Shown: positions 21,378 through 28,378, numbered from the stretch's first letter. The stretch is 64,000 nt of DNA from an uncultured delta proteobacterium (GCA_963775425.1 CAVZJB010000013.1:32001-96000); one strand, 5' to 3'. Program-made: numbers and translations. The notes: a model not told the origin generated them from the sequence alone.

Positions 21378-22925
21378 TCAGCGCGCCGACTTCAGCGCGG
21401 CCTTGATCATGTGCAGGCTGCCGCGCGGGGCCACGCCGGCGTCGACGCGGCCTTCGCGGCCCGCGGTGCCCGAGCCGCCGCCTGCGCCGCCGGCCCCGTC
21501 GGCGCCGCGCGCGGCGCGGTCGCTGCCGCAGGAGTCGCCGTCGCCGCCGCCGCCGCCGTTGCCGCCGAAGCCGCCGCCGCCGGGGGCGCCGCCCTGCACG
21601 CTCGCCCGGACGGCCGCGAGCGCGGCCTTGCTGTCGGCGCGGATGCGCACGTGCCCGCCGTCGCCGCCCCGCCCGCCGGGGCCGCCGTTGCCGCCCGTGC
21701 CGCCGGCGCCGCCGGGGCGGCAGGTGTCGCCGCTGCCGAAGGCCCAGCCGTTGCCGCCGCCGCCGCCGCGCCCGCCCGAGCCGCCGGGGCCGCCGTCGGC
21801 CGCGATCAACAGCGGGCCCGCGGTCTTCGGGTCGAACACCGCGAGGTTGACGCCGCCGCCGTGCGTGGAGACCGCCGCGAGCACGAGGTCCTCGCCGCCG
21901 GGGCCGCGCAGGGAGGTGGCCTCCACCGTGACGTCGAGGCCGCGCGCGCCGTCGCCGCCGGGGCCGCCGGGGCCGCCGGGGCCGCCCGCCTGGCCTTCGG
22001 AGCCCGCGCCCTGGCCGGAGTCACCGAAGTTGCCCGAGCCGCCGCCGCCGCCCTCGAAGTTGAACCAGGGCTTGGGACAGCCGAAGTCGGGCTTGAGGTC
22101 GAGCGTGGCCTGCACGTTGGTCGGCGCGTCCACCTTGACGGTGACGATGACGTCCTTGCCGAGCGCCGCCAGCGACGTGCCGAGCGGCGAGACCACGGCG
22201 CTCCTGGTCTGGGTGAGGACGCCGTCGGGGTTGCTGGTCCACTGAAACCAGCCCGCGCGCGAAGCGTCGAGCTTGATGTTGCGGCCCTTTTCGTCCTTGG
22301 CCACGAGGGGCTTGAGCGCCGTGGCGCCGACGGTGCAGAAGCTCTGCGCGCCGCTCTTGGTGGCCAGCTCCACGGACGCGACCGTGGACTGGGTGGCGCC
22401 GCCGCTGCCGTAGCGCGCGCTCTCGAGCGAGGCCGTGGCGTGCTTCACGTCGAACATGCGGTTCTTGCCGCTCGCCTTCTGGTTGCCGTCGTACCAGAGG
22501 TAGCCGCCGCCGACGGCGCCGGCGAGGCCGCCGAAGAAGGCGGCGTAGTACACGAGGGTGTCGCCGGTGCCGCCGAGGATGGGCTTGGCGTTGCTGCCCG
22601 ACGTCGTCACCACGTAGTAGCCGAGGCCGCCGACAATCATGCCGGCGCCGGTGAGCCCGAGCGCGACGCCGACGGGTTGGAACATCTCGCCCTGGGCGCG
22701 CTCGGCGCGGATCTTCTCCGCCGACTCCTTGTCGCCGACGAGGGAATAGAACTCCTCCTCGTCGAGGTGGTCGTCGCCGCGGATGAAGCTCCCGTTCGGC
22801 GTGATCTCGACGTCGTCGCCGCTCTCCTCGAGGTGGCGCGCGGGATCGGTGACGCAAGCGCCGCCGACGGCGACGACGGCGCTGAGGGCCACGGGGACGA
22901 GACGGGAGAGAGGAAGGGTTCGCAT
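21378..22925 (-). CDS. Putative lipoprotein with two internal TM segments and Gly-rich (GGxGGx) C-terminus
   Basis: Lipobox-like GGAC; hydrophobic hairpin; polyglycine repeats. Confidence 0.7.
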   Translation of the reverse strand: MRTLPLSRLVPVALSAVVAVGGACVTDPARHLEESGDDVEITPNGSFIRGDDHLDEEEFYSLVGDKESAEKIRAERAQGEMFQPVGVALGLTGAGMIVGGLGYYVVTTSGSNAKPILGGTGDTLVYYAAFFGGLAGAVGGGYLWYDGNQKASGKNRMFDVKHATASLESARYGSGGATQSTVASVELATKSGAQSFCTVGATALKPLVAKDEKGRNIKLDASRAGWFQWTSNPDGVLTQTRSAVVSPLGTSLAALGKDVIVTVKVDAPTNVQATLDLKPDFGCPKPWFNFEGGGGGSGNFGDSGQGAGSEGQAGGPGGPGGPGGDGARGLDVTVEATSLRGPGGEDLVLAAVSTHGGGVNLAVFDPKTAGPLLIAADGGPGGSGGRGGGGGNGWAFGSGDTCRPGGAGGTGGNGGPGGRGGDGGHVRIRADSKAALAAVRASVQGGAPGGGGFGGNGGGGGDGDSCGSDRAARGADGAGGAGGGSGTAGREGRVDAGVAPRGSLHMIKAALKSAR

Positions 22926-23074
22926 GGGCGCGGACCCTACGCGCCGCCCACGCGCGCCGCAGCGGCCCCCGTCACACCCGTGCGCGCACCACACGCGCCG
23001 CGGCGGACCGGGCCCGTCGTGCGCACGGAGCTGCGGGCGCACAAAGCTGCGCGCACGAACAGCGGCGCGACCCG

Positions 23075-24298
23075 CTACGGGGCGACGCTGGCGGCGTAGA
23101 CGGCCTTGCCGTCCTTCACCTGGAGGACCACGGCGGGCTTCACGGCGTTTCGCTCGGCGTTCAAGGTGATGTTGCCGGCGACGCCGGGGTAGTCCTTGGT
23201 CTTGGCGATCTCGTCGCGGATGGCCGGGCCCGACAAATCGTTCGCCCGCTCCATGGCCGTGATGGCGACGTTGGCCGCGTCATACGCGAGCGCCGCCAGC
23301 GACTCCGGCTTGTTGCCGCCGTACTTGGCCTCGAAGGCCTTCACGAACTTCTGCACGTTGGGGTTCGGATCGTCGGGCGAGTAGTGGTTGGTGTAGTAGC
23401 TGCCGTCGATGGCGCTGCCGCCGAGCTCGAAGAGCTTCTCGCTCTCCCAGCCGTCGCCGCCGAGGAGCGGGGCCTTGATGCCGAGCTCGCGCGCCTGGCG
23501 GGCGATGACGCCTACGTCGGTGTAGTAGCCGGGGACGTAGATGGCCTCGGGCTTCTTGCCCTTGAGCGAGGTGAGCTGCCCGCGGAAGTCGGTGTCGCCC
23601 TTGGAGTACGCCTCCTCGCCGACGATCTTGCCGCCCATCTTGGTGAACTCCTCGGAGAACACCTTGGCGAGGCCGAGCGAGTAGTCGCTCTTGTTGTCCT
23701 TGAGGACGGCGACGTTCTTCACCTTGAGGTTGTTGGTGGCGAACTTGGCCATGGCCAGGCCCTGGAAGGGATCGATGAAGCAGACGCGGAAGATGTAGTC
23801 GCCCACCTGGGTGACGGCGATGTTCGTCGACGACGGCGTGATCATCGGGACCTGCGCGGCCTGGGCCTTGGGCGCCATGGCCAGCGAGTTGGACGACGCC
23901 ACCTCGCCGAGGATGAGCTTCACGTGGTCCTGGTTGATGAGGCGGGTGACGGCGTTGGCGGCCTCTTCGGCCTTGCCCTGGTCGTCGTAGACGCGGACGT
24001 CGAGCTTCTTGGTGCTGCCGTCCTTGAGCTTGATGCCGCCGCGGGCGTTGGCCTCCTCGATGGCCATCTGGATGCCGTTTCTCGTCGAGATGCCGAACGT
24101 GGCCTCGCTGCCGGTGAGCGAGCCGACCTCGCCGAGGAGGATGACGTCGTCCTTGGGCTCGGTGGGCGCCGATGGCTGCGAGGTGGCGCCGGCGCCGGCG
24201 GCGTCGCCGTTGTTCTCGCCTCCCTGGGCCGCGCGCTTTTCGCAGCCGAAGGCGAAGGTCAACGAGGCGGACAACAACGAGACGGCGAGCGCACGCAT
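23075..24298 (-). CDS. Branched-chain amino acid ABC transporter substrate-binding lipoprotein (LivJ/LivK family)
   Basis: Lipobox AFGC; A.EEAN..GGI, DDQGK.EEA, YIFRVCFIDPFQG, DTDFRGQLT. Confidence 0.92.
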   Translation of the reverse strand: MRALAVSLLSASLTFAFGCEKRAAQGGENNGDAAGAGATSQPSAPTEPKDDVILLGEVGSLTGSEATFGISTRNGIQMAIEEANARGGIKLKDGSTKKLDVRVYDDQGKAEEAANAVTRLINQDHVKLILGEVASSNSLAMAPKAQAAQVPMITPSSTNIAVTQVGDYIFRVCFIDPFQGLAMAKFATNNLKVKNVAVLKDNKSDYSLGLAKVFSEEFTKMGGKIVGEEAYSKGDTDFRGQLTSLKGKKPEAIYVPGYYTDVGVIARQARELGIKAPLLGGDGWESEKLFELGGSAIDGSYYTNHYSPDDPNPNVQKFVKAFEAKYGGNKPESLAALAYDAANVAITAMERANDLSGPAIRDEIAKTKDYPGVAGNITLNAERNAVKPAVVLQVKDGKAVYAASVAP

Positions 24299-24357
24299 GG
24301 AAAACCTCCGGATGCGGGCTTGTACCAGGGTCCGGTGTCACGAGCTACACTCGATGC

Positions 24358-24870
24358 GTGCGCCGCTTCGTCGTCGTCGCCGTGCTGGTGCTTTGTGGCT
24401 TCACCGCGAGGGCCACGAGCGTCTACGTGCTGTCGCTCGCGCAGATGCGCGCCCGCGCCGACGTCGTCGTGCGCGCGCACGTGGTGGCGCAAGAGACGGC
24501 GCTCGAGGGCGACAGGCCCGTGACGTACACAACCCTCGACGTCGTCGAGGTCTGGAAGGGCGCGGCGCCGCACGAGCGGCTGGTGCTGTATCAGGCGGGC
24601 GCGCTCGACGGGGTCCACGTGCGGTGGATCGCCGGCGCGCACGTGTTCTCCGTCGGCGACGACGTGGTCATCTTCGGGGAGCGCGTCCGCCACGCCGGAA
24701 ATCCGGTCGTGGTGACGCTCACGCTCGGCTACGGCACGTTCGCCGTGGACGGCCAGGGCGCCGTGCGCGAGGACGCCGGCGGCGCCGTCGACGTCGTCAC
24801 CGGCCGGGTGACCCGGCCGCGCGCGTTCCCGTCGGTGCAGGCGCTGCACGCGGCCGTGGAGCGCCCGTGA
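24358..24870 (+). CDS. Secreted TIMP/NTR-like OB-fold protein
   Basis: Signal peptide ending ARA; ADVVVRAHVV...V.EVWKG pattern; stop overlaps the next start (GTGA). Confidence 0.7.
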   Translation: MRRFVVVAVLVLCGFTARATSVYVLSLAQMRARADVVVRAHVVAQETALEGDRPVTYTTLDVVEVWKGAAPHERLVLYQAGALDGVHVRWIAGAHVFSVGDDVVIFGERVRHAGNPVVVTLTLGYGTFAVDGQGAVREDAGGAVDVVTGRVTRPRAFPSVQALHAAVERP

Positions 24871-26936
24871 GCGGCCGGCGTGGGGCGGCGCCCGCGGTCG
24901 TGGCGTGTCTCGTCGCGTGCCTCGCGGCGACGGACGTGGGCGCGTTCGAGCCCCTGTGCAACAGCTTCGGCGCCGGCGGCGGCCACTTCCAGGACCAGTG
25001 CGGCGCCTGCAGCGAGGACAGCGCCGCGCGCTGGGAGCCCGCGGCGGTGACGTTCGTGTTCGACCGGACCACGGTGCCGAGCGCGCAAGGCGTCTCGGCC
25101 GCGCGCTTCGCCCAGGACATCGACATCTCGCTCGCGGCCTGGAACGCGGTGCCCTCGTCGACGCTGGTGATGTCCGACGGCGGCGCGCTCAGCGAGCGCG
25201 TGCACAACGCAAACGTCGCCGAGCACGCCGTCTACTGGGACATCGACGACCAGGACTGGGTGAACGACACCAGCACCGCCCCCGACGGCGGCGCCCTCGG
25301 CATCACCTCCTTCACCTACGACTGCGACAATGACGGCGACGGCCGCCGCCAGCCCTATCAGGACGCCGACGTCGTGTTGAACGGCACACCCGGGCTCGCC
25401 GCCAACGTCTCGAGCTACAACGGCACCTGCGGCGGCCGGCCCTGCCCGTCGTCGACGACGGTGCTGATGCACGAGCTCGGGCACGCGGTGGGCCTCGGCC
25501 ACCCCTGCCCGCTGTGCGCGGACGCGCTCATGAGCGCCTCGCTCATCGTCAACGTGGGCGAGCCGCTCCCCGACGACGCGCTCTCGCTGCTCTCGCTCTA
25601 CGGCGCGCCCGGCGCCCTCGGCACGCCCTGCGCCGGCGACGGCGACTGCGGCTCGGGACACTGCGGCTCCTTCGCGCTCCCAAGCGGCGCGGCGTCGTAT
25701 TGCACGCAGCCCTGCGGCACCTGCCCCACGGGCTTCGCGTGCCTCGCGGGGCAGTGCGCGTTCGCGAGCACGCCGGACACGGCGCTCCCGGCCGTCGGCG
25801 AACCCTGCGGCTTCACCTGCGCCGACGACTGCTTCGCCGGGCAACCCGCCGGCAGCGTCATCGGCCCCGGCTGCAACGCCTGCCTCGTGGTCGGCGGCGC
25901 GGCCACGTGTGTGAAGGGCTGCTCGAAGTCGACCGGCGACGGCTGCGATCTGGCGAACGAGTTCTGCTCGGGCGTCGGCACGCCCGACGACCAGGGACAG
26001 TGCAAGCCGCGCCGCGCCGAGGGCGGAGCGTGCGCCGACGACAGCTTCTGCGAGCAGGGCCTTCACTGCGTCGGCAACGTCTGCCGCGCCGGCTGCGACC
26101 CCGCCGACAGCGCCACGTGCGCCGCCGGCCAGAGCTGCGTCGACGACGGCAGCGGGAGCTTCACGTGCCGCGGCGGCCTCGAGGGCGAGGCGTGCGCCGC
26201 CGCCGCCGACTGCGCGAGCGGCTTCACCTGCACGGGCTTCACGGCGCAGGCGCTGTTCTGCTTCAAGGACTGCGTGGACGACACCTCCTGCGCCGCCGAC
26301 GAGGCCTGCGCGCAGACCAACGCGGGCGACATCTGCGTGCGCGCGCGCGACGTCGGCGAGAGCTGCCCCGAGTTCAACGTCGTCTGCGCCGCGGGCTCGA
26401 CGTGCGACCCCGCGCACACGCTGTGCACGCGCCCCTGCTCGCTCGACGACGGCAGCGGCTGCCAGGCGGGCGAGACCTGCGTCGACGTCGACGGCGACGG
26501 CCTCTGCGTCGCCGCCGGGGACGCCGGCCTCGGGGAAGCGTGCGCGACGTCGTCGGACTGCCAGGCGGAGCTCCTGTGCGACGGCAGCGCCTGCCGCGCC
26601 CGCTGCGACCTCGGCGTCCCCTGCCCCTTCGGGGACGCGTGCACCGCCCTCGACACCGGCAGCGCCTGCATCCCCGCGGGCGAGGGCGAGGGCGAGGGCG
26701 AAGGCGACGCGGGCGAGGGCGAGGGCGAAGGCGAAGGCGATCCCCCCGGCGATCCCCCCGGTGGCTGCACCTGCGCGACCACCGCCGCCCCCGACGCGCT
26801 CGCGCTCGCCCTCGTCGCCCTCCTCGCCCGGCGACGCCGCCACGTGAAAGCGCAGCAGGGACACCGGCGCGCCGGGCTTCACGCCGAACGTGGCGAGCGC
26901 CGCGCATCCGCATGCGACGACGCGCGGGCAGGATGA
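24867..26936 (+). CDS. Matrixin-family (M10-like) zinc metalloprotease with Cys-rich repeats, (GE)n linker and MYXO-CTERM-like tail
   Basis: AAWNAV, DADVVLN, HELGHAVGLGH and Met-turn ALM; many C..D.DC repeats; GGCTCA + TM + RRRR. Confidence 0.88.
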   Translation: MSGRRGAAPAVVACLVACLAATDVGAFEPLCNSFGAGGGHFQDQCGACSEDSAARWEPAAVTFVFDRTTVPSAQGVSAARFAQDIDISLAAWNAVPSSTLVMSDGGALSERVHNANVAEHAVYWDIDDQDWVNDTSTAPDGGALGITSFTYDCDNDGDGRRQPYQDADVVLNGTPGLAANVSSYNGTCGGRPCPSSTTVLMHELGHAVGLGHPCPLCADALMSASLIVNVGEPLPDDALSLLSLYGAPGALGTPCAGDGDCGSGHCGSFALPSGAASYCTQPCGTCPTGFACLAGQCAFASTPDTALPAVGEPCGFTCADDCFAGQPAGSVIGPGCNACLVVGGAATCVKGCSKSTGDGCDLANEFCSGVGTPDDQGQCKPRRAEGGACADDSFCEQGLHCVGNVCRAGCDPADSATCAAGQSCVDDGSGSFTCRGGLEGEACAAAADCASGFTCTGFTAQALFCFKDCVDDTSCAADEACAQTNAGDICVRARDVGESCPEFNVVCAAGSTCDPAHTLCTRPCSLDDGSGCQAGETCVDVDGDGLCVAAGDAGLGEACATSSDCQAELLCDGSACRARCDLGVPCPFGDACTALDTGSACIPAGEGEGEGEGDAGEGEGEGEGDPPGDPPGGCTCATTAAPDALALALVALLARRRRHVKAQQGHRRAGLHAERGERRASACDDARAG
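26679..26738 (+). repeat. (Gly-Glu)n coding repeat
   Basis: [20 protein letters not shown]. Confidence 0.9.
26842..26892 (-). pseudogene. 51-bp remnant matching the aspartyl protease gene (6894-6944)
   Basis: 48/51 nt identical; encodes the same peptide TFGVKPGAPVSLLRFHV. Confidence 0.7.
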
Positions 26937-27033
26937 GCGCGCGTCGCTGACGGGCGCTCGAGCGCACCGGCAGCGCGCGCGGGCCGCGCTGGCACGGTCG
27001 ATGAGTCCTGCGTCATCGCACCCAGGAGTCATC

Positions 27034-27267
27034 ATGAAGACCGTCATCGCCGCTTTCGTCCTCATCTGCGCGGGCAGCGTCGCCAACCGCCCGCTCACGG
27101 CGTCGTCGCTCGACCATTTGCAAGCCCTCGACGACACCGCCCTCGACGGCACCAAGGCCGCGCTCACCGGGCTCAACGAGCGCGCGCTCGACGTCCTGCC
27201 CGCCGCCGCCACGCTGCGCGCCGAGGACGCCGTCGCCGCCGTCGCCCTTCGGCTCGCCGGCGGATGA
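27034..27267 (+). CDS. Small secreted hypothetical protein
   Basis: AGGAG RBS; signal peptide MKTVIAAFVLICAG. Confidence 0.6.
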   Translation: MKTVIAAFVLICAGSVANRPLTASSLDHLQALDDTALDGTKAALTGLNERALDVLPAAATLRAEDAVAAVALRLAGG

Positions 27268-27307
27268 TCGGCTTTTCCGTGCGCCGCGCCGGCGGTGTCG
27301 GTCTGCC

Positions 27308-28378
27308 ATGAAGCTCAGGTGGCGCGCTCTCGCCCTTGTCGCCCCGTGGCCGCTCGCGTGCTGCGCCCCGCCGCCCCTTCACCCGGACGGCGTCGGAGAG
27401 ACCGTGCATCAGCAGGTGGTGGTGCAGTTGACCGGCGGCGCGCCGACGGGCCCGGGCTCGCCGTCGGAGATCGGCGTGGTCAACCTCGACGGGTCCGACC
27501 TCCTGCCGCTCACCAACGACGGCACCTTCAAGTTCCTCCCGCACTTCTCGCCCGACGGCACGCGGATCGCGTACACGAAGTTCGCGCTCGGCGGCGCCTA
27601 CGGCCAGCCCGGCTCGCACGCCGACATCGCCGTCTACGAGCTCGCCACGGGCCGGGAGACGATGCTGACGACGGACGGCGCCAGCGTCCAGGTGACGTGG
27701 TCCCCCGACGGAGCGCGCTTCGCGTGGCTCCGCTTCGACGGCACCGTCGGCAACGGGCCCGGCGCGATCTGGGTCGCCGACGCCGACGGCGCGAACGCGC
27801 ACCGCATCGCGGCGTCGCCCGGCACGCGCGAGGACGGCGCGTGGGGTGACATCGCGTGGGGGCCCGGGGATTGGATCCTCTTCACGGTCCAGACGAACAT
27901 CGGCGACTGCTTCAAGGTGCGCACCGACAAGATCCGGGCAGACGGCAGCGAGCGCACGCAGGTGAGCGACGGCGGCTCGAGCTGCACGCCGCAGGGCTTC
28001 GAGCAGGCGGGCGACGCGGACCCGGGCTGGAGCGCCGACGGCGCGACCATCTACACCTCGCGCGGTCTGCCGTCCGCCCCGAGCGACGCGCCGGCGGGCC
28101 AGACCATCACCGAGCGCAAGCTCGAGTCGTTCTCGAGCGACGCATGGACCCCGCAAAGCGCCGACACCGACCTGTCGCTGCCCGCCGCGCCCGACTGCAT
28201 CGAAGGCGTGCCGAAGGCGTCGCCCGACGGTGACAGCGTGCTCCTCTTCCGTCTGTGCTTCGGCGCAAACGGCCAACCCGACGAGCCCGGCGTCTACCTC
28301 GCGGACGCTGCCGGCGCGACGCGGAGCTTCGTGCTCGCCGGCTTCGGCGCAGACTGGAATCCTTCCGCCGCGCCGTAG
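27308..28378 (+). CDS. TolB-like PD40 beta-propeller lipoprotein
   Basis: Lipobox-like LAC; repeated (F/W/A)SPDG motifs. Confidence 0.85.
   Translation: MKLRWRALALVAPWPLACCAPPPLHPDGVGETVHQQVVVQLTGGAPTGPGSPSEIGVVNLDGSDLLPLTNDGTFKFLPHFSPDGTRIAYTKFALGGAYGQPGSHADIAVYELATGRETMLTTDGASVQVTWSPDGARFAWLRFDGTVGNGPGAIWVADADGANAHRIAASPGTREDGAWGDIAWGPGDWILFTVQTNIGDCFKVRTDKIRADGSERTQVSDGGSSCTPQGFEQAGDADPGWSADGATIYTSRGLPSAPSDAPAGQTITERKLESFSSDAWTPQSADTDLSLPAAPDCIEGVPKASPDGDSVLLFRLCFGANGQPDEPGVYLADAAGATRSFVLAGFGADWNPSAAP

Follow-up and report, generated by a model that had tools for sequence, protein, structure and literature searches.

Whether the pairing between TIMPs (tissue inhibitors of metalloproteinases) and matrix metalloproteinases (MMPs) has a bacterial counterpart is the question raised by two overlapping genes in the DNA of an uncultured delta proteobacterium. 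The genes lie in a stretch of 64,000 nucleotides (GCA_963775425.1 CAVZJB010000013.1:32001-96000) with a G+C content of about 72%, which was analysed as a whole and is called the window below. The upstream gene encodes P0001, a small protein with likeness to TIMPs, and the downstream gene encodes P0002, an MMP-like zinc protease. A first-pass annotation described a 170-residue secreted-type open reading frame (ORF) overlapping the start of a metzincin gene at the letters GTGA, and this arrangement is present in the translated sequence; the overlap suggests that the two genes are co-transcribed and translationally coupled. The annotation interpreted the small protein as a disulfide-free inhibitor or trans-acting prodomain of the protease, with a TIMP-like oligonucleotide/oligosaccharide-binding (OB) fold, and this interpretation is supported as far as computation reaches. 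It had named four findings that would speak against it (another fold, cleavage at another site, homologues unlinked to M10 proteases, no binding or inhibition); three of these can be addressed computationally, and none of the three was encountered. We consider it fairly probable that P0001 is the cognate TIMP-like inhibitor or latency partner of P0002, whereas the narrower proposal that mature residue 1 chelates the catalytic zinc, by analogy with TIMPs, stands at roughly even chances.

The likeness begins at the predicted N-terminus of the mature protein. TIMPs chelate the zinc of their target with the amine and carbonyl groups of residue 1, and the Ser or Thr at residue 2 enters S1'. In the translation of P0001, T-S-V occupies residues 20-22, A34-D35-V-V-V-R-A-H-V-V corresponds to mature residues 15-24, and V-E-V-W-K-G is found at 63-68, so that all three motifs listed in the first-pass annotation (T1-S2-V3, A15-D16-V-V-V-R-A-H-V-V and V-E-V-W-K-G) can be read directly. 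The TIMP-2 sequence which the annotation gave for comparison is also correct, matching C1-S2-C3, A15-D16-V-V-I-R-A-K-A-V and K-M-F-K-G as printed by HMMER. By our own reading, P0001 and TIMP-2 carry the same residue, without a gap, at 9 of the first 24 mature positions. Taken alone, this likeness would be no more than chance, and it appears significant only by way of structure and of the profile bridge described below.

Conservation within the family points to the same N-terminus. In an alignment of 104 P0001 family members (A1), Ala occupies position -3 in 79 rows and position -1 in 95. At +1 there are 73 rows with Thr, 16 with Ser and 11 with Ala, and at +3 Val is found in 76 rows. Conservation in the alignment is among the highest at the signal-peptidase site and over the first mature residues; columns 81, 82 and 93 have Gly in at least 90% of the rows. 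The predicted cleavage after A-R-A, that is after Ala19, is thus backed both by conservation (Ala at -3 and -1, Thr or Ser at +1 in 89/104) and by the structural register. The aligned proteases start with a different conserved segment, mostly with Phe or Tyr, and Thr at +1 is therefore a property of the P0001 family and not a general one of secreted proteins in these organisms. The mature protein (residues 20-170) has no cysteine, in agreement with its earlier description as being without disulfides. The precursor has a single cysteine, Cys13 of the leader, which follows L-V-L and is not kept in the A1 rows shown; this context is no standard lipobox, and the predicted signal peptide ends with A-R-A before Thr, which argues against a lipoprotein anchor. 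The translation of P0001 contains no sorting tag.

The P0001 family is large and carries no family name in Pfam or NCBIfam: P0001 itself matches no Pfam family at E<=1 or at E<=10, and it has no NCBIfam match. Scanned in full with HMMER, 1.84 billion cluster representatives (clusters at 50% identity) yield 771 clusters at E<=0.001, of which 38 reach E<=1e-10. A profile search of a set of 5.8 billion proteins gives 445 matches to the family. The 120 listed are all 'hypothetical protein' or unnamed, with no precomputed Pfam domain, and the names assigned by NCBI among the matches listed include Candidatus Acidiferrales (two) and Candidatus Limnocylindria (one). A match to the family is present in 51 of 61 genomes related to that of the window. 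A word-indexed homologue search with single proteins found only 2 matches for P0001 and 3 for the protease domain.

An AlphaFold2 model of P0001, built from A1 with no templates, has a mean predicted local distance difference test (pLDDT) score of 93.3 and a predicted template modelling (pTM) score of 0.86. In an exhaustive VIA-align search of 48,161 representative chains of the PDB, the N-terminal domain of TIMP-3 ranks first (Z 10.7, root mean square deviation 2.9 A, 114 of 121 residues). It is followed at ranks 2-12 by agrin NtA, the C345C domains of C3, C4 and C5, the NTR domain of PCOLCE, TIMP-1 and the NTR domain of meteorin (Z 9.6 to 7.5), so that the TIMP, NTR and agrin NtA group fills all of the first twelve ranks; Stn1 and generic OB folds come next, with Z of at most 7.2. 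When the 993 best chains aligned by Foldseek were rescored as a second structural look, all 50 rows fell into the same group, with N-TIMP-1 at Z 10.3 and TIMP-2 at Z 9.1 (18% identity). Residue 20 of the model is aligned to TIMP residue 1 in all nine TIMP rows, and the register from the N-terminus to Asp16, which the first-pass annotation had taken from the sequence, therefore holds in the structure as well. The alignments pair P0001 with N-TIMP residues 1-118 to 1-125 only, and P0001 ends at residue 170. In a protein atlas, which we use as a lead only, the nearest named clusters of P0001 carry TIMP, NtA and NTR families. By its model P0001 belongs to the TIMP-like/NTR fold group, clearly above generic OB folds, as had been supposed when a TIMP-like OB fold was assigned to it.

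A route from P0001 to animal TIMPs by sequence leads through a second bacterial family. The Pfam TIMP family (PF00965), searched over the 61 related genomes, gives one match above the curated cut-off, at another locus of genome G013 (27.5 bits). The ORF in question (L067:3115-3885, minus strand, contig 18) encodes 256 residues, reaches 27.0 bits on PF00965 against a cut-off of 23.1, and consists of a signal peptide followed by C-R-C-G-P, then K-M-F-K-G, A-A-C-G and a MYXO-CTERM tail. Such Cys-x-Cys proteins (including those at L071-L078) are present in 11 of 251 genomes from the phylum. In an alignment of nine of these proteins (A3), all start with Cys-x-Cys right after the signal peptide and share four invariant cysteines, C21, C23, C90 and C116. 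By eye, a MYXO-CTERM-like tail is present in at least three Cys-x-Cys proteins. The A3 profile matches TIMP-2 (E 6.9e-7), TIMP-3 (2.9e-6) and TIMP-1 (1.1e-4), each time placing the first cysteine on TIMP residue 1, and its third and fourth invariant cysteines align with A-V-C-G and T-L-C of TIMP-2, whose cysteines are presumably the partners of Cys1 and Cys3. From these profile matches we conclude that the Cys-x-Cys proteins are TIMP homologues in myxobacteria.

The P0001 family is connected to the Cys-x-Cys proteins by comparison of profiles. With hhalign, the P0001 family and A3 align over 96 columns (Prob 96.0%, E 4e-9), and over 78 columns when the signal peptides are left out (Prob 93.7%, E 1.9e-7, score 47.9), against scores of 15.2 for reversed A3 and at most 12.7 for 30 column shuffles. 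Cross matches between the two families, hidden Markov model to sequence, reach 24.6 bits. The I-A-G-A segment of the P0001 family (residues 91-94), which is part of the predicted interface with the protease, is aligned by hhalign to A-A-C-G of A3, and this in turn is aligned by HMMER to A-V-C-G of TIMP-2. A sequence bridge thus runs from the P0001 family through the bacterial Cys-x-Cys family to animal TIMPs, and the P0001 family is likely to be homologous to TIMPs. The relation falls short of proof because the bridge consists of nine sequences, only the N-terminal two-thirds are aligned, and weak matches to the family DUF4131, considered below, are unexplained. An hhalign comparison of the P0001 family with the single G013 sequence gave a Prob of 0.85%, which is not significant; the relation is seen only with the nine-sequence A3.

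The Cys-x-Cys proteins resemble P0001 in being secreted, in their occurrence in the same phylum, and in having a hydrophobic strand after Ala/Ser-Asp/Glu, a K-G motif and an F-x-x-G-E/K strand. They differ from it by retaining Cys1, Cys3 and two partner cysteines, by passing the Pfam TIMP model, by being rarer, and by their neighbourhood, since a metzincin is found within about 1.5 kb in none of 10 loci. They appear to be the concrete lead for the idea, raised in the first-pass annotation, that the pair bears on the origin of TIMPs.

The partner of P0001 has the outline of a surface-displayed MMP-like protease. P0002 consists of a signal-like leader, the segment F-E-P-L-C-N, the zinc motif, Cys-rich repeats of about 365 residues, a Gly-Glu linker and a MYXO-CTERM tag, beyond whose Arg-rich end some 30 further residues precede the stop codon (window 26841-26936), which is unusual. 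It carries HELGHAVGLGHPC, followed by a methionine ten residues past the third histidine. In an alignment of 29 orthologous catalytic domains (A2), HExGHxxGxxH, the methionine M196 and several Trp and Cys residues are invariant, and a conserved [FY]x[FY]xCN segment stands directly after the hydrophobic leader. The translation of P0002 shows no cysteine switch of the PRCG type (PRCGxPD). The lack of a propeptide, claimed in the first-pass annotation, is borne out by this absence together with the position of [FY]x[FY]xCN in A2.

The affinity of the catalytic domain to MMPs is seen in both profiles and structure. The A2 profile matches the catalytic domains of MMP-1, MMP-12 and MMP-11 at about 2e-8 and serralysins at about 1e-5. 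PF00413 is matched by 27 of the 29 orthologous domains at E<=0.01 (best 1.5e-8), and it is precomputed for P0154, which is 61% identical to P0002. The AlphaFold2 model of the domain has a pLDDT of 85.6. Its best Foldseek match is karilysin (8b2q_A, E 2.9e-6), followed by MMP-11 at 7.1e-6, and MMP-1, -8, -9, -12 and -13 are also found; template modelling scores normalised by the target range from 0.63 to 0.78 against isolated catalytic domains. The label 'matrixin' given to P0002 in the first-pass annotation is approximately right: HELGHAVGLGH, the Met-turn, the MMP- and karilysin-like fold and the matches of the orthologues to PF00413 agree with it, whereas the window copy itself reaches 16.8 bits with the whole protein and 20.0 bits with the domain alone, below the PF00413 cut-off of 24. 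P0002 is an MMP-like metzincin without a prodomain.

The two genes travel together. The small protein as query gave a first set of 14 foreign loci. Directly downstream of the small gene, 12 of these have an HExxHxxGxxHPC ORF, and the other two are located on short contigs, one ending inside the protease ORF (L003) and one with about 300 bases downstream (L013). The protease domain alone, used as query, is present in 38 of the 61 related genomes. Of the 29 foreign loci obtained with this query, 28 show a match to the A1 profile just upstream, on the strand of the protease; at the 29th (L036) the contig ends 35 bases past the protease match. Comparing the tables for the 61 genomes by hand places the small gene upstream in 39 of 44 protease matches, with two of the five exceptions at contig ends. 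We also chose 20 distant loci where the small gene has no detected orthologous protease nearby, and in 15 of these the next ORF downstream, in the same orientation, encodes another protein with HExxHxxGxxH. The synteny spans 21 family-level groups of one phylum. The window's own genome (G000) contains a second pair of the orthologous type (contig 16, 808031-809391, minus strand; protease match E 1.3e-31) and a third, distant pair (contig 3, 320701-322100; L046: 2876-4377), whose protease scores 44.2 bits on PF00413 and has the motifs HEFGHVLGLDH and A-T-M-F-P.

In some proteins the two modules are joined. In P0092 a signal peptide is followed directly by a TIMP-like domain and then by a HELGH protease with fibronectin repeats. 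In P0088 and P0124 a full Peptidase_M10 domain (50.3 bits in P0088, 54.5 in P0124) comes first, ahead of a membrane segment and of a TIMP-like domain with a signal-like stretch of its own; these two fusions may be run-on gene calls. In all long or fused forms inspected (P0092, P0088, P0124 and P0134) the TIMP-like domain comes right after a signal-like segment, so that its N-terminus would be free, which fits a need for a free N-terminus. Together with the counts of 28 of 29 and 15 of 20 loci, the fusions make the link to M10-like proteases asserted in the first-pass annotation very strong. Tandem arrays of small gene, metzincin, small gene and metzincin on one strand are seen at L056 (2921-5985) and L063 (401-6269), in two distant genomes of the phylum. 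In one distant genome (L050:1-3069, minus strand; G049 contig 77) a TIMP-like gene is followed, in place of a metzincin, by a lipoprotein of more than 1,000 residues with repeats of the C-x-D-x-N-x-C-T-x-D-x-C type, which runs off the locus end. In a family of genomes of 0.3-3.4 Mb from the same order (f6, G015-G037), the pair is retained in 14 of 21 genomes, the carriers measuring 1.3-3.4 Mb.

The manner in which the two proteins might meet was examined by folding the catalytic domain (with A2), one zinc and mature P0001, residues 20-170 (with A1), in three runs alongside three controls. The interaction prediction score from aligned errors (ipSAE) is 0.86, 0.87 and 0.86 in the three runs, against 0.00 for the best of the controls; in the calibration of the method, this mark is reached by 58 of 80 solved complexes and by 2 of 110 mismatched pairs. 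The partner pLDDT is at least 85, and the runs share at least 72% of their contacts. On the P0001 side the interface comprises residues 20-25, the tip of the hairpin at 51-55, and residues 78-94, 107-113 and 119-123. On the protease side it comprises residues 106-127 (the edge strand and the preceding loop), H176, E177, H180, H186, 188-189 and 198-200, the last just after the Met-turn, and loop 78-94 of P0001 pairs with domain residues 106-112 and 121-127. Binding of P0001 to P0002 is thus predicted, and the predicted docking has the overall topology of the TIMP wedge in the MMP cleft known from TIMP-MMP structures.

The synteny, the fusions and the confident complex argue for partnership and not specifically for inhibition, and P0001 might instead be a folding or secretion escort, or a stable non-catalytic subunit concerned with substrate recognition or anchoring. 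The prodomains of other proteases often act as folding chaperones, and P0002 has none. OB folds and NTR modules are often binding modules, and the NTR of PCOLCE belongs to an enhancer and not to an inhibitor, according to the accessible part of PMC2871463. On the other hand, the zinc histidines are covered by the predicted interface together with the catalytic Glu, and an active holoenzyme fits poorly with this. An escort would have no evident use for the conserved free N-terminus, and P0001 has no sorting tag with which to accompany the protease to the surface. We regard an escort or subunit as unlikely.

We propose instead that P0001 and P0002 form an operon-type pair of an MMP-like zinc protease with its TIMP-like inhibitor or latency partner. 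Owing to the GTGA overlap both proteins would be made together, and both would be exported by Sec. Folding of the prodomain-less protease would take place in the periplasm, with a tether holding it at the inner membrane, and a type II secretion system would then carry it to the surface; as far as the accessible text of PMC11980579 describes it, the MYXO-CTERM route runs from Sec export through an inner-membrane tether, lipidation and myxosortase cleavage to surface display. Having no prodomain, the protease would be active in the periplasm during its passage, and a co-made, periplasmic, untagged partner covering the active site would prevent self-damage. P0001, as an untagged and disulfide-free N-TIMP-like OB module, would dock into the active-site cleft during this stage by three contacts: the free N-terminal segment Thr20-Leu25, the loop 78-94 and the hairpin 107-123. 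On the analogy of TIMPs, mature residue 1 would bind the zinc through its alpha-amino and carbonyl groups, the segment would occupy the primed side, and loop 78-94 would run along the edge strand. Separation from P0001, either on export or after degradation of P0001, would activate the protease. Of all this, the gene overlap, the fold, the conservation of the N-terminus and of the synteny, and the fusions are seen in the data, the complex with its interface is a prediction, and cleavage after Ala19, zinc chelation, inhibition, the periplasmic timing and the release are steps that we infer.

Comparison with animal TIMPs (MEROPS I35, PF00965) shows both sides of this relation. P0001 shares with them the OB fold of the N-domain, predicted to start at the first residue past the signal peptide, the A-D-V-V-x-R-A and K-G motifs in the same register, an MMP-like metzincin partner, and a predicted interface formed by the N-terminal segment and a loop aligning with the Cys-Gly loop of TIMPs. 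It differs in having Thr in place of Cys1, no Cys3 and no disulfides, in lacking the C-terminal domain (which has three further disulfides in TIMPs) and a PF00965 match, and in being bacterial and operon-coupled to its partner. By the criteria of membership P0001 is not a TIMP, though it shares the TIMP/NTR fold, the register, the metzincin partner and the predicted docking.

Two bacterial systems resemble the pair in gene arrangement. In Tannerella forsythia, the gene for the inhibitor potempin A (PotA) lies immediately upstream of that for karilysin and is co-transcribed with it, and potempins, encoded upstream of the Tannerella KLIKK proteases, have been shown to shield the envelope of the cell itself, as stated in the accessible part of the article (Ksiazek et al. 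2022, PMC9890683). Like P0001, PotA is a small OB-fold barrel encoded immediately upstream of an MMP-like protease. Unlike P0001, potempins are outer-membrane lipoproteins, and PotA works by a loop-based 'bilobal' mechanism where an N-terminal mode is predicted for P0001; its authors, in the same part of the text, describe PotA as having otherwise no relation to TIMPs. The 50 best structural matches of the P0001 model do not include PotA, whose target, karilysin, is the best match of the P0002 catalytic domain. Serralysin inhibitors (MEROPS I38) are encoded with an M10 metzincin and are periplasmic, as is proposed for P0001. Their N-terminal residue binds the zinc, and they guard against self-damage. 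The Pseudomonas APRin and Erwinia Inh are described as endogenous inhibitors with a TIMP-like interaction in the accessible part of PMC8235301. None of their chains appears among the structural-search rows of the P0001 model.

Several observations weigh against P0001 as a TIMP-like inhibitor. A phmmer search of PDB sequences with whole P0001 and with residues 20-75 has no match at E<=10, and the family profile finds two chance rows there (E 0.78 and 1.6). PF00965 matches neither P0001 nor its locus and finds only an unrelated sub-threshold site on contig 12 across the window's genome; TIMP is also not among the best 25 of 39 Pfam families for the 104 A1 members. TIMPs staple the N-terminal segment by disulfides, whereas mature P0001 has no cysteine with which to do so. 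Residue +1 is not universal, being Ala in 11/104 rows and, at junctions read by eye, Ile or Leu in one clade or genus of small genomes. The complex was folded from our own alignments with a zinc riding along, which departs from the calibration of the tool, and since MMP-TIMP complexes have already been solved, the model may reproduce a remembered arrangement.

Other points of this kind would be expected if the likeness were that of a generic OB fold whose task lies elsewhere, for example in binding a ligand or glycan or in immunity to foreign proteases, and if the adjacency reflected shared regulation. Foldseek, suggested in the first-pass annotation as a check on the fold, agrees with it in part: TIMP-1, TIMP-2, N-TIMP-3, agrin NtA and complement C3 are in its top rows, whereas no PDB match of P0001 reaches E<=0.001 and the TIMP rows (E 0.008-0.05) are mixed with OB folds of telomere proteins and single-stranded DNA-binding (SSB) proteins. 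Searched against viral models, Foldseek gives generic OB/SSB-like rows only, none at E<=0.001. DUF4131, which we take to be the N-terminal region of ComEC, is weakly matched by 19 of the 104 A1 members at E<=10 (4/104 at E<=0.01; best 9.7e-4), and part of the sequence signal may therefore be common to other families; in P0088 it covers the hydrophobic leader as well as the first strands. Five of the 20 distant loci have no adjoining metzincin, the next gene encoding an ABC (ATP-binding cassette) transporter, a giant Cys-rich lipoprotein or unassigned ORFs, and the absence of metzincins beside the Cys-x-Cys family (0/10) goes in the same direction. Against an unrelated role stand the exhaustive structural search, which parts TIMP/NTR folds (Z 7.5-10.7) from generic OB folds, the profile bridge to TIMPs far above its controls, and the synteny over 21 family-level groups together with the M10 fusions. 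A generic OB fold seems to us the least probable account of the pair, with slender chances.

The remaining point against an inhibitor comes from Listeria monocytogenes, where a secreted metzincin, Mtz, adjoins Tim, a protein that is TIMP-like by Phyre2 structure prediction. In the accessible part of the report (Boichis et al. 2021, PMC8235301), Tim, the only bacterial TIMP-like protein studied, is presented as a substrate of the metzincin and not as a proven inhibitor; its authors state there that they came upon no previous account of TIMP-like proteins in bacteria. Mtz cleaves Tim about 50 residues in, and Tim sensitises the cell wall. Since the sole experimentally studied pair works in this way, P0001 might likewise be a substrate or pro-factor whose cleaved fragment acts elsewhere, for example on the envelope or on prey, and adjacent genes and a predicted contact at the active site are compatible with this too. 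The two systems resemble each other in a TIMP-like structure predicted without TIMP-like sequence and in conservation across many bacteria. Tim, however, is a lipoprotein from whose N-terminus about 50 additional residues are cut off; its gene lies downstream of that of its protease and, by the same account, is of phage origin and found in Gram-positive bacteria. The fold of P0001 begins at the predicted signal cleavage site, its leader has no standard lipobox around the cysteine after L-V-L, and its gene lies upstream of the protease. A tblastn search with P0001 of 50,697 phage records has no match at E<=1, and there is therefore no link to phage-borne Tim by that route. A role as substrate is very unlikely in our judgement, if slightly less so than that of an unrelated OB fold.

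The features of the locus are collected below.

Coordinates of the gene pair and its parts in the window, with the basis of each assignment
Feature	Coordinates	Strand	Basis
Small gene P0001 (170-residue TIMP-like secreted protein)	24358..24870	+	GTG start; translation
Predicted Sec signal peptide, residues 1-19, ending A-R-A	24358..24414	+	Hydrophobic helix 2-15 in AlphaFold2 model; family conservation
Predicted mature N-terminal segment T20-S-V-Y-V-L25, candidate zinc-site plug	24415..24432	+	Translation; conservation; structural register; predicted interface
Loop residues 78-94 (Y-Q-A-G-A...I-A-G-A), second predicted contact element	24589..24639	+	Predicted interface
GTGA overlap: small-gene stop TGA (24868-24870) and protease start GTG (24867)	24867..24870	+	Read directly
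Protease gene P0002 (689-residue surface-anchored MMP-like metzincin)	24867..26936	+	Translation; Pfam; NCBIfam
Catalytic domain, P0002 residues 27-265, starting F-E-P-L-C-N, no propeptide	24945..25661	+	Alignment A2; PF00413; AlphaFold2 model
Zinc motif HELGHAVGLGH, P-C and Met-turn methionine (HELGHAVGLGHPCPLCADALM)	25470..25532	+	Translation
Cys-rich repeats and Gly-Glu linker	25662..26756	+	Translation; no Pfam family at E<=0.001 within 25662-26936
MYXO-CTERM sorting tag (PGGCTC...ARRRR)	26757..26840	+	TIGR03901, 22.0 bits against cut-off 20

The pair is flanked by genes for a periplasmic binding protein on the opposite strand, a PD40 beta-propeller protein and an asparagine synthase, which look unrelated to it. 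A scan of 24100-27400 yields no promoter-like sites and four terminator-like sites, none of which separates the small gene from the protease gene. A further ORF of 554 residues (window 21378-23042, minus strand) has a signal-like start and long Gly-rich GGPGGSGGRGGGGGNG-like runs, and matches no Pfam family at E<=0.001.

In the literature covered, which lay outside supplements and subscription journals, we found no description of the P0001 family or of bacterial Cys-x-Cys TIMPs. Two articles (PMC4860685 and PMC9409782) treat TIMPs as metazoan; in their accessible text bacteria appear only in a reference, and 'prokaryot' occurs in neither. The P0001 family also extends beyond the phylum, with members whose sources are named as Acidobacteriota-type and Limnocylindria. 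Our results suggest that the TIMP-MMP pairing is not confined to animals. A wider reading, which we offer tentatively and consider rather doubtful, is that the TIMP-metzincin module is not an animal invention: an old bacterial family with a disulfide-free TIMP fold would be hard-wired to MMP-like proteases, the Cys-x-Cys form would bridge it to animal TIMPs, which along with NTR modules would descend from it or share an ancestor with it, and N-terminal zinc chelation would predate the disulfide staples. With a widespread bacterial family of TIMP fold, whose free N-terminus resembles that of TIMPs and whose genes are tied to those of MMP-like proteases, the origin of the TIMP-MMP system can be put to the test, and the bacterial Cys-x-Cys homologues of TIMPs strengthen such a test. 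If P0001 inhibits its partner, the TIMP wedge would work without disulfides, which would be of interest for small metalloprotease inhibitors proof against reducing environments. For the bacterium itself, the pair suggests how a surface protease without a propeptide may be kept harmless during its periplasmic stage.

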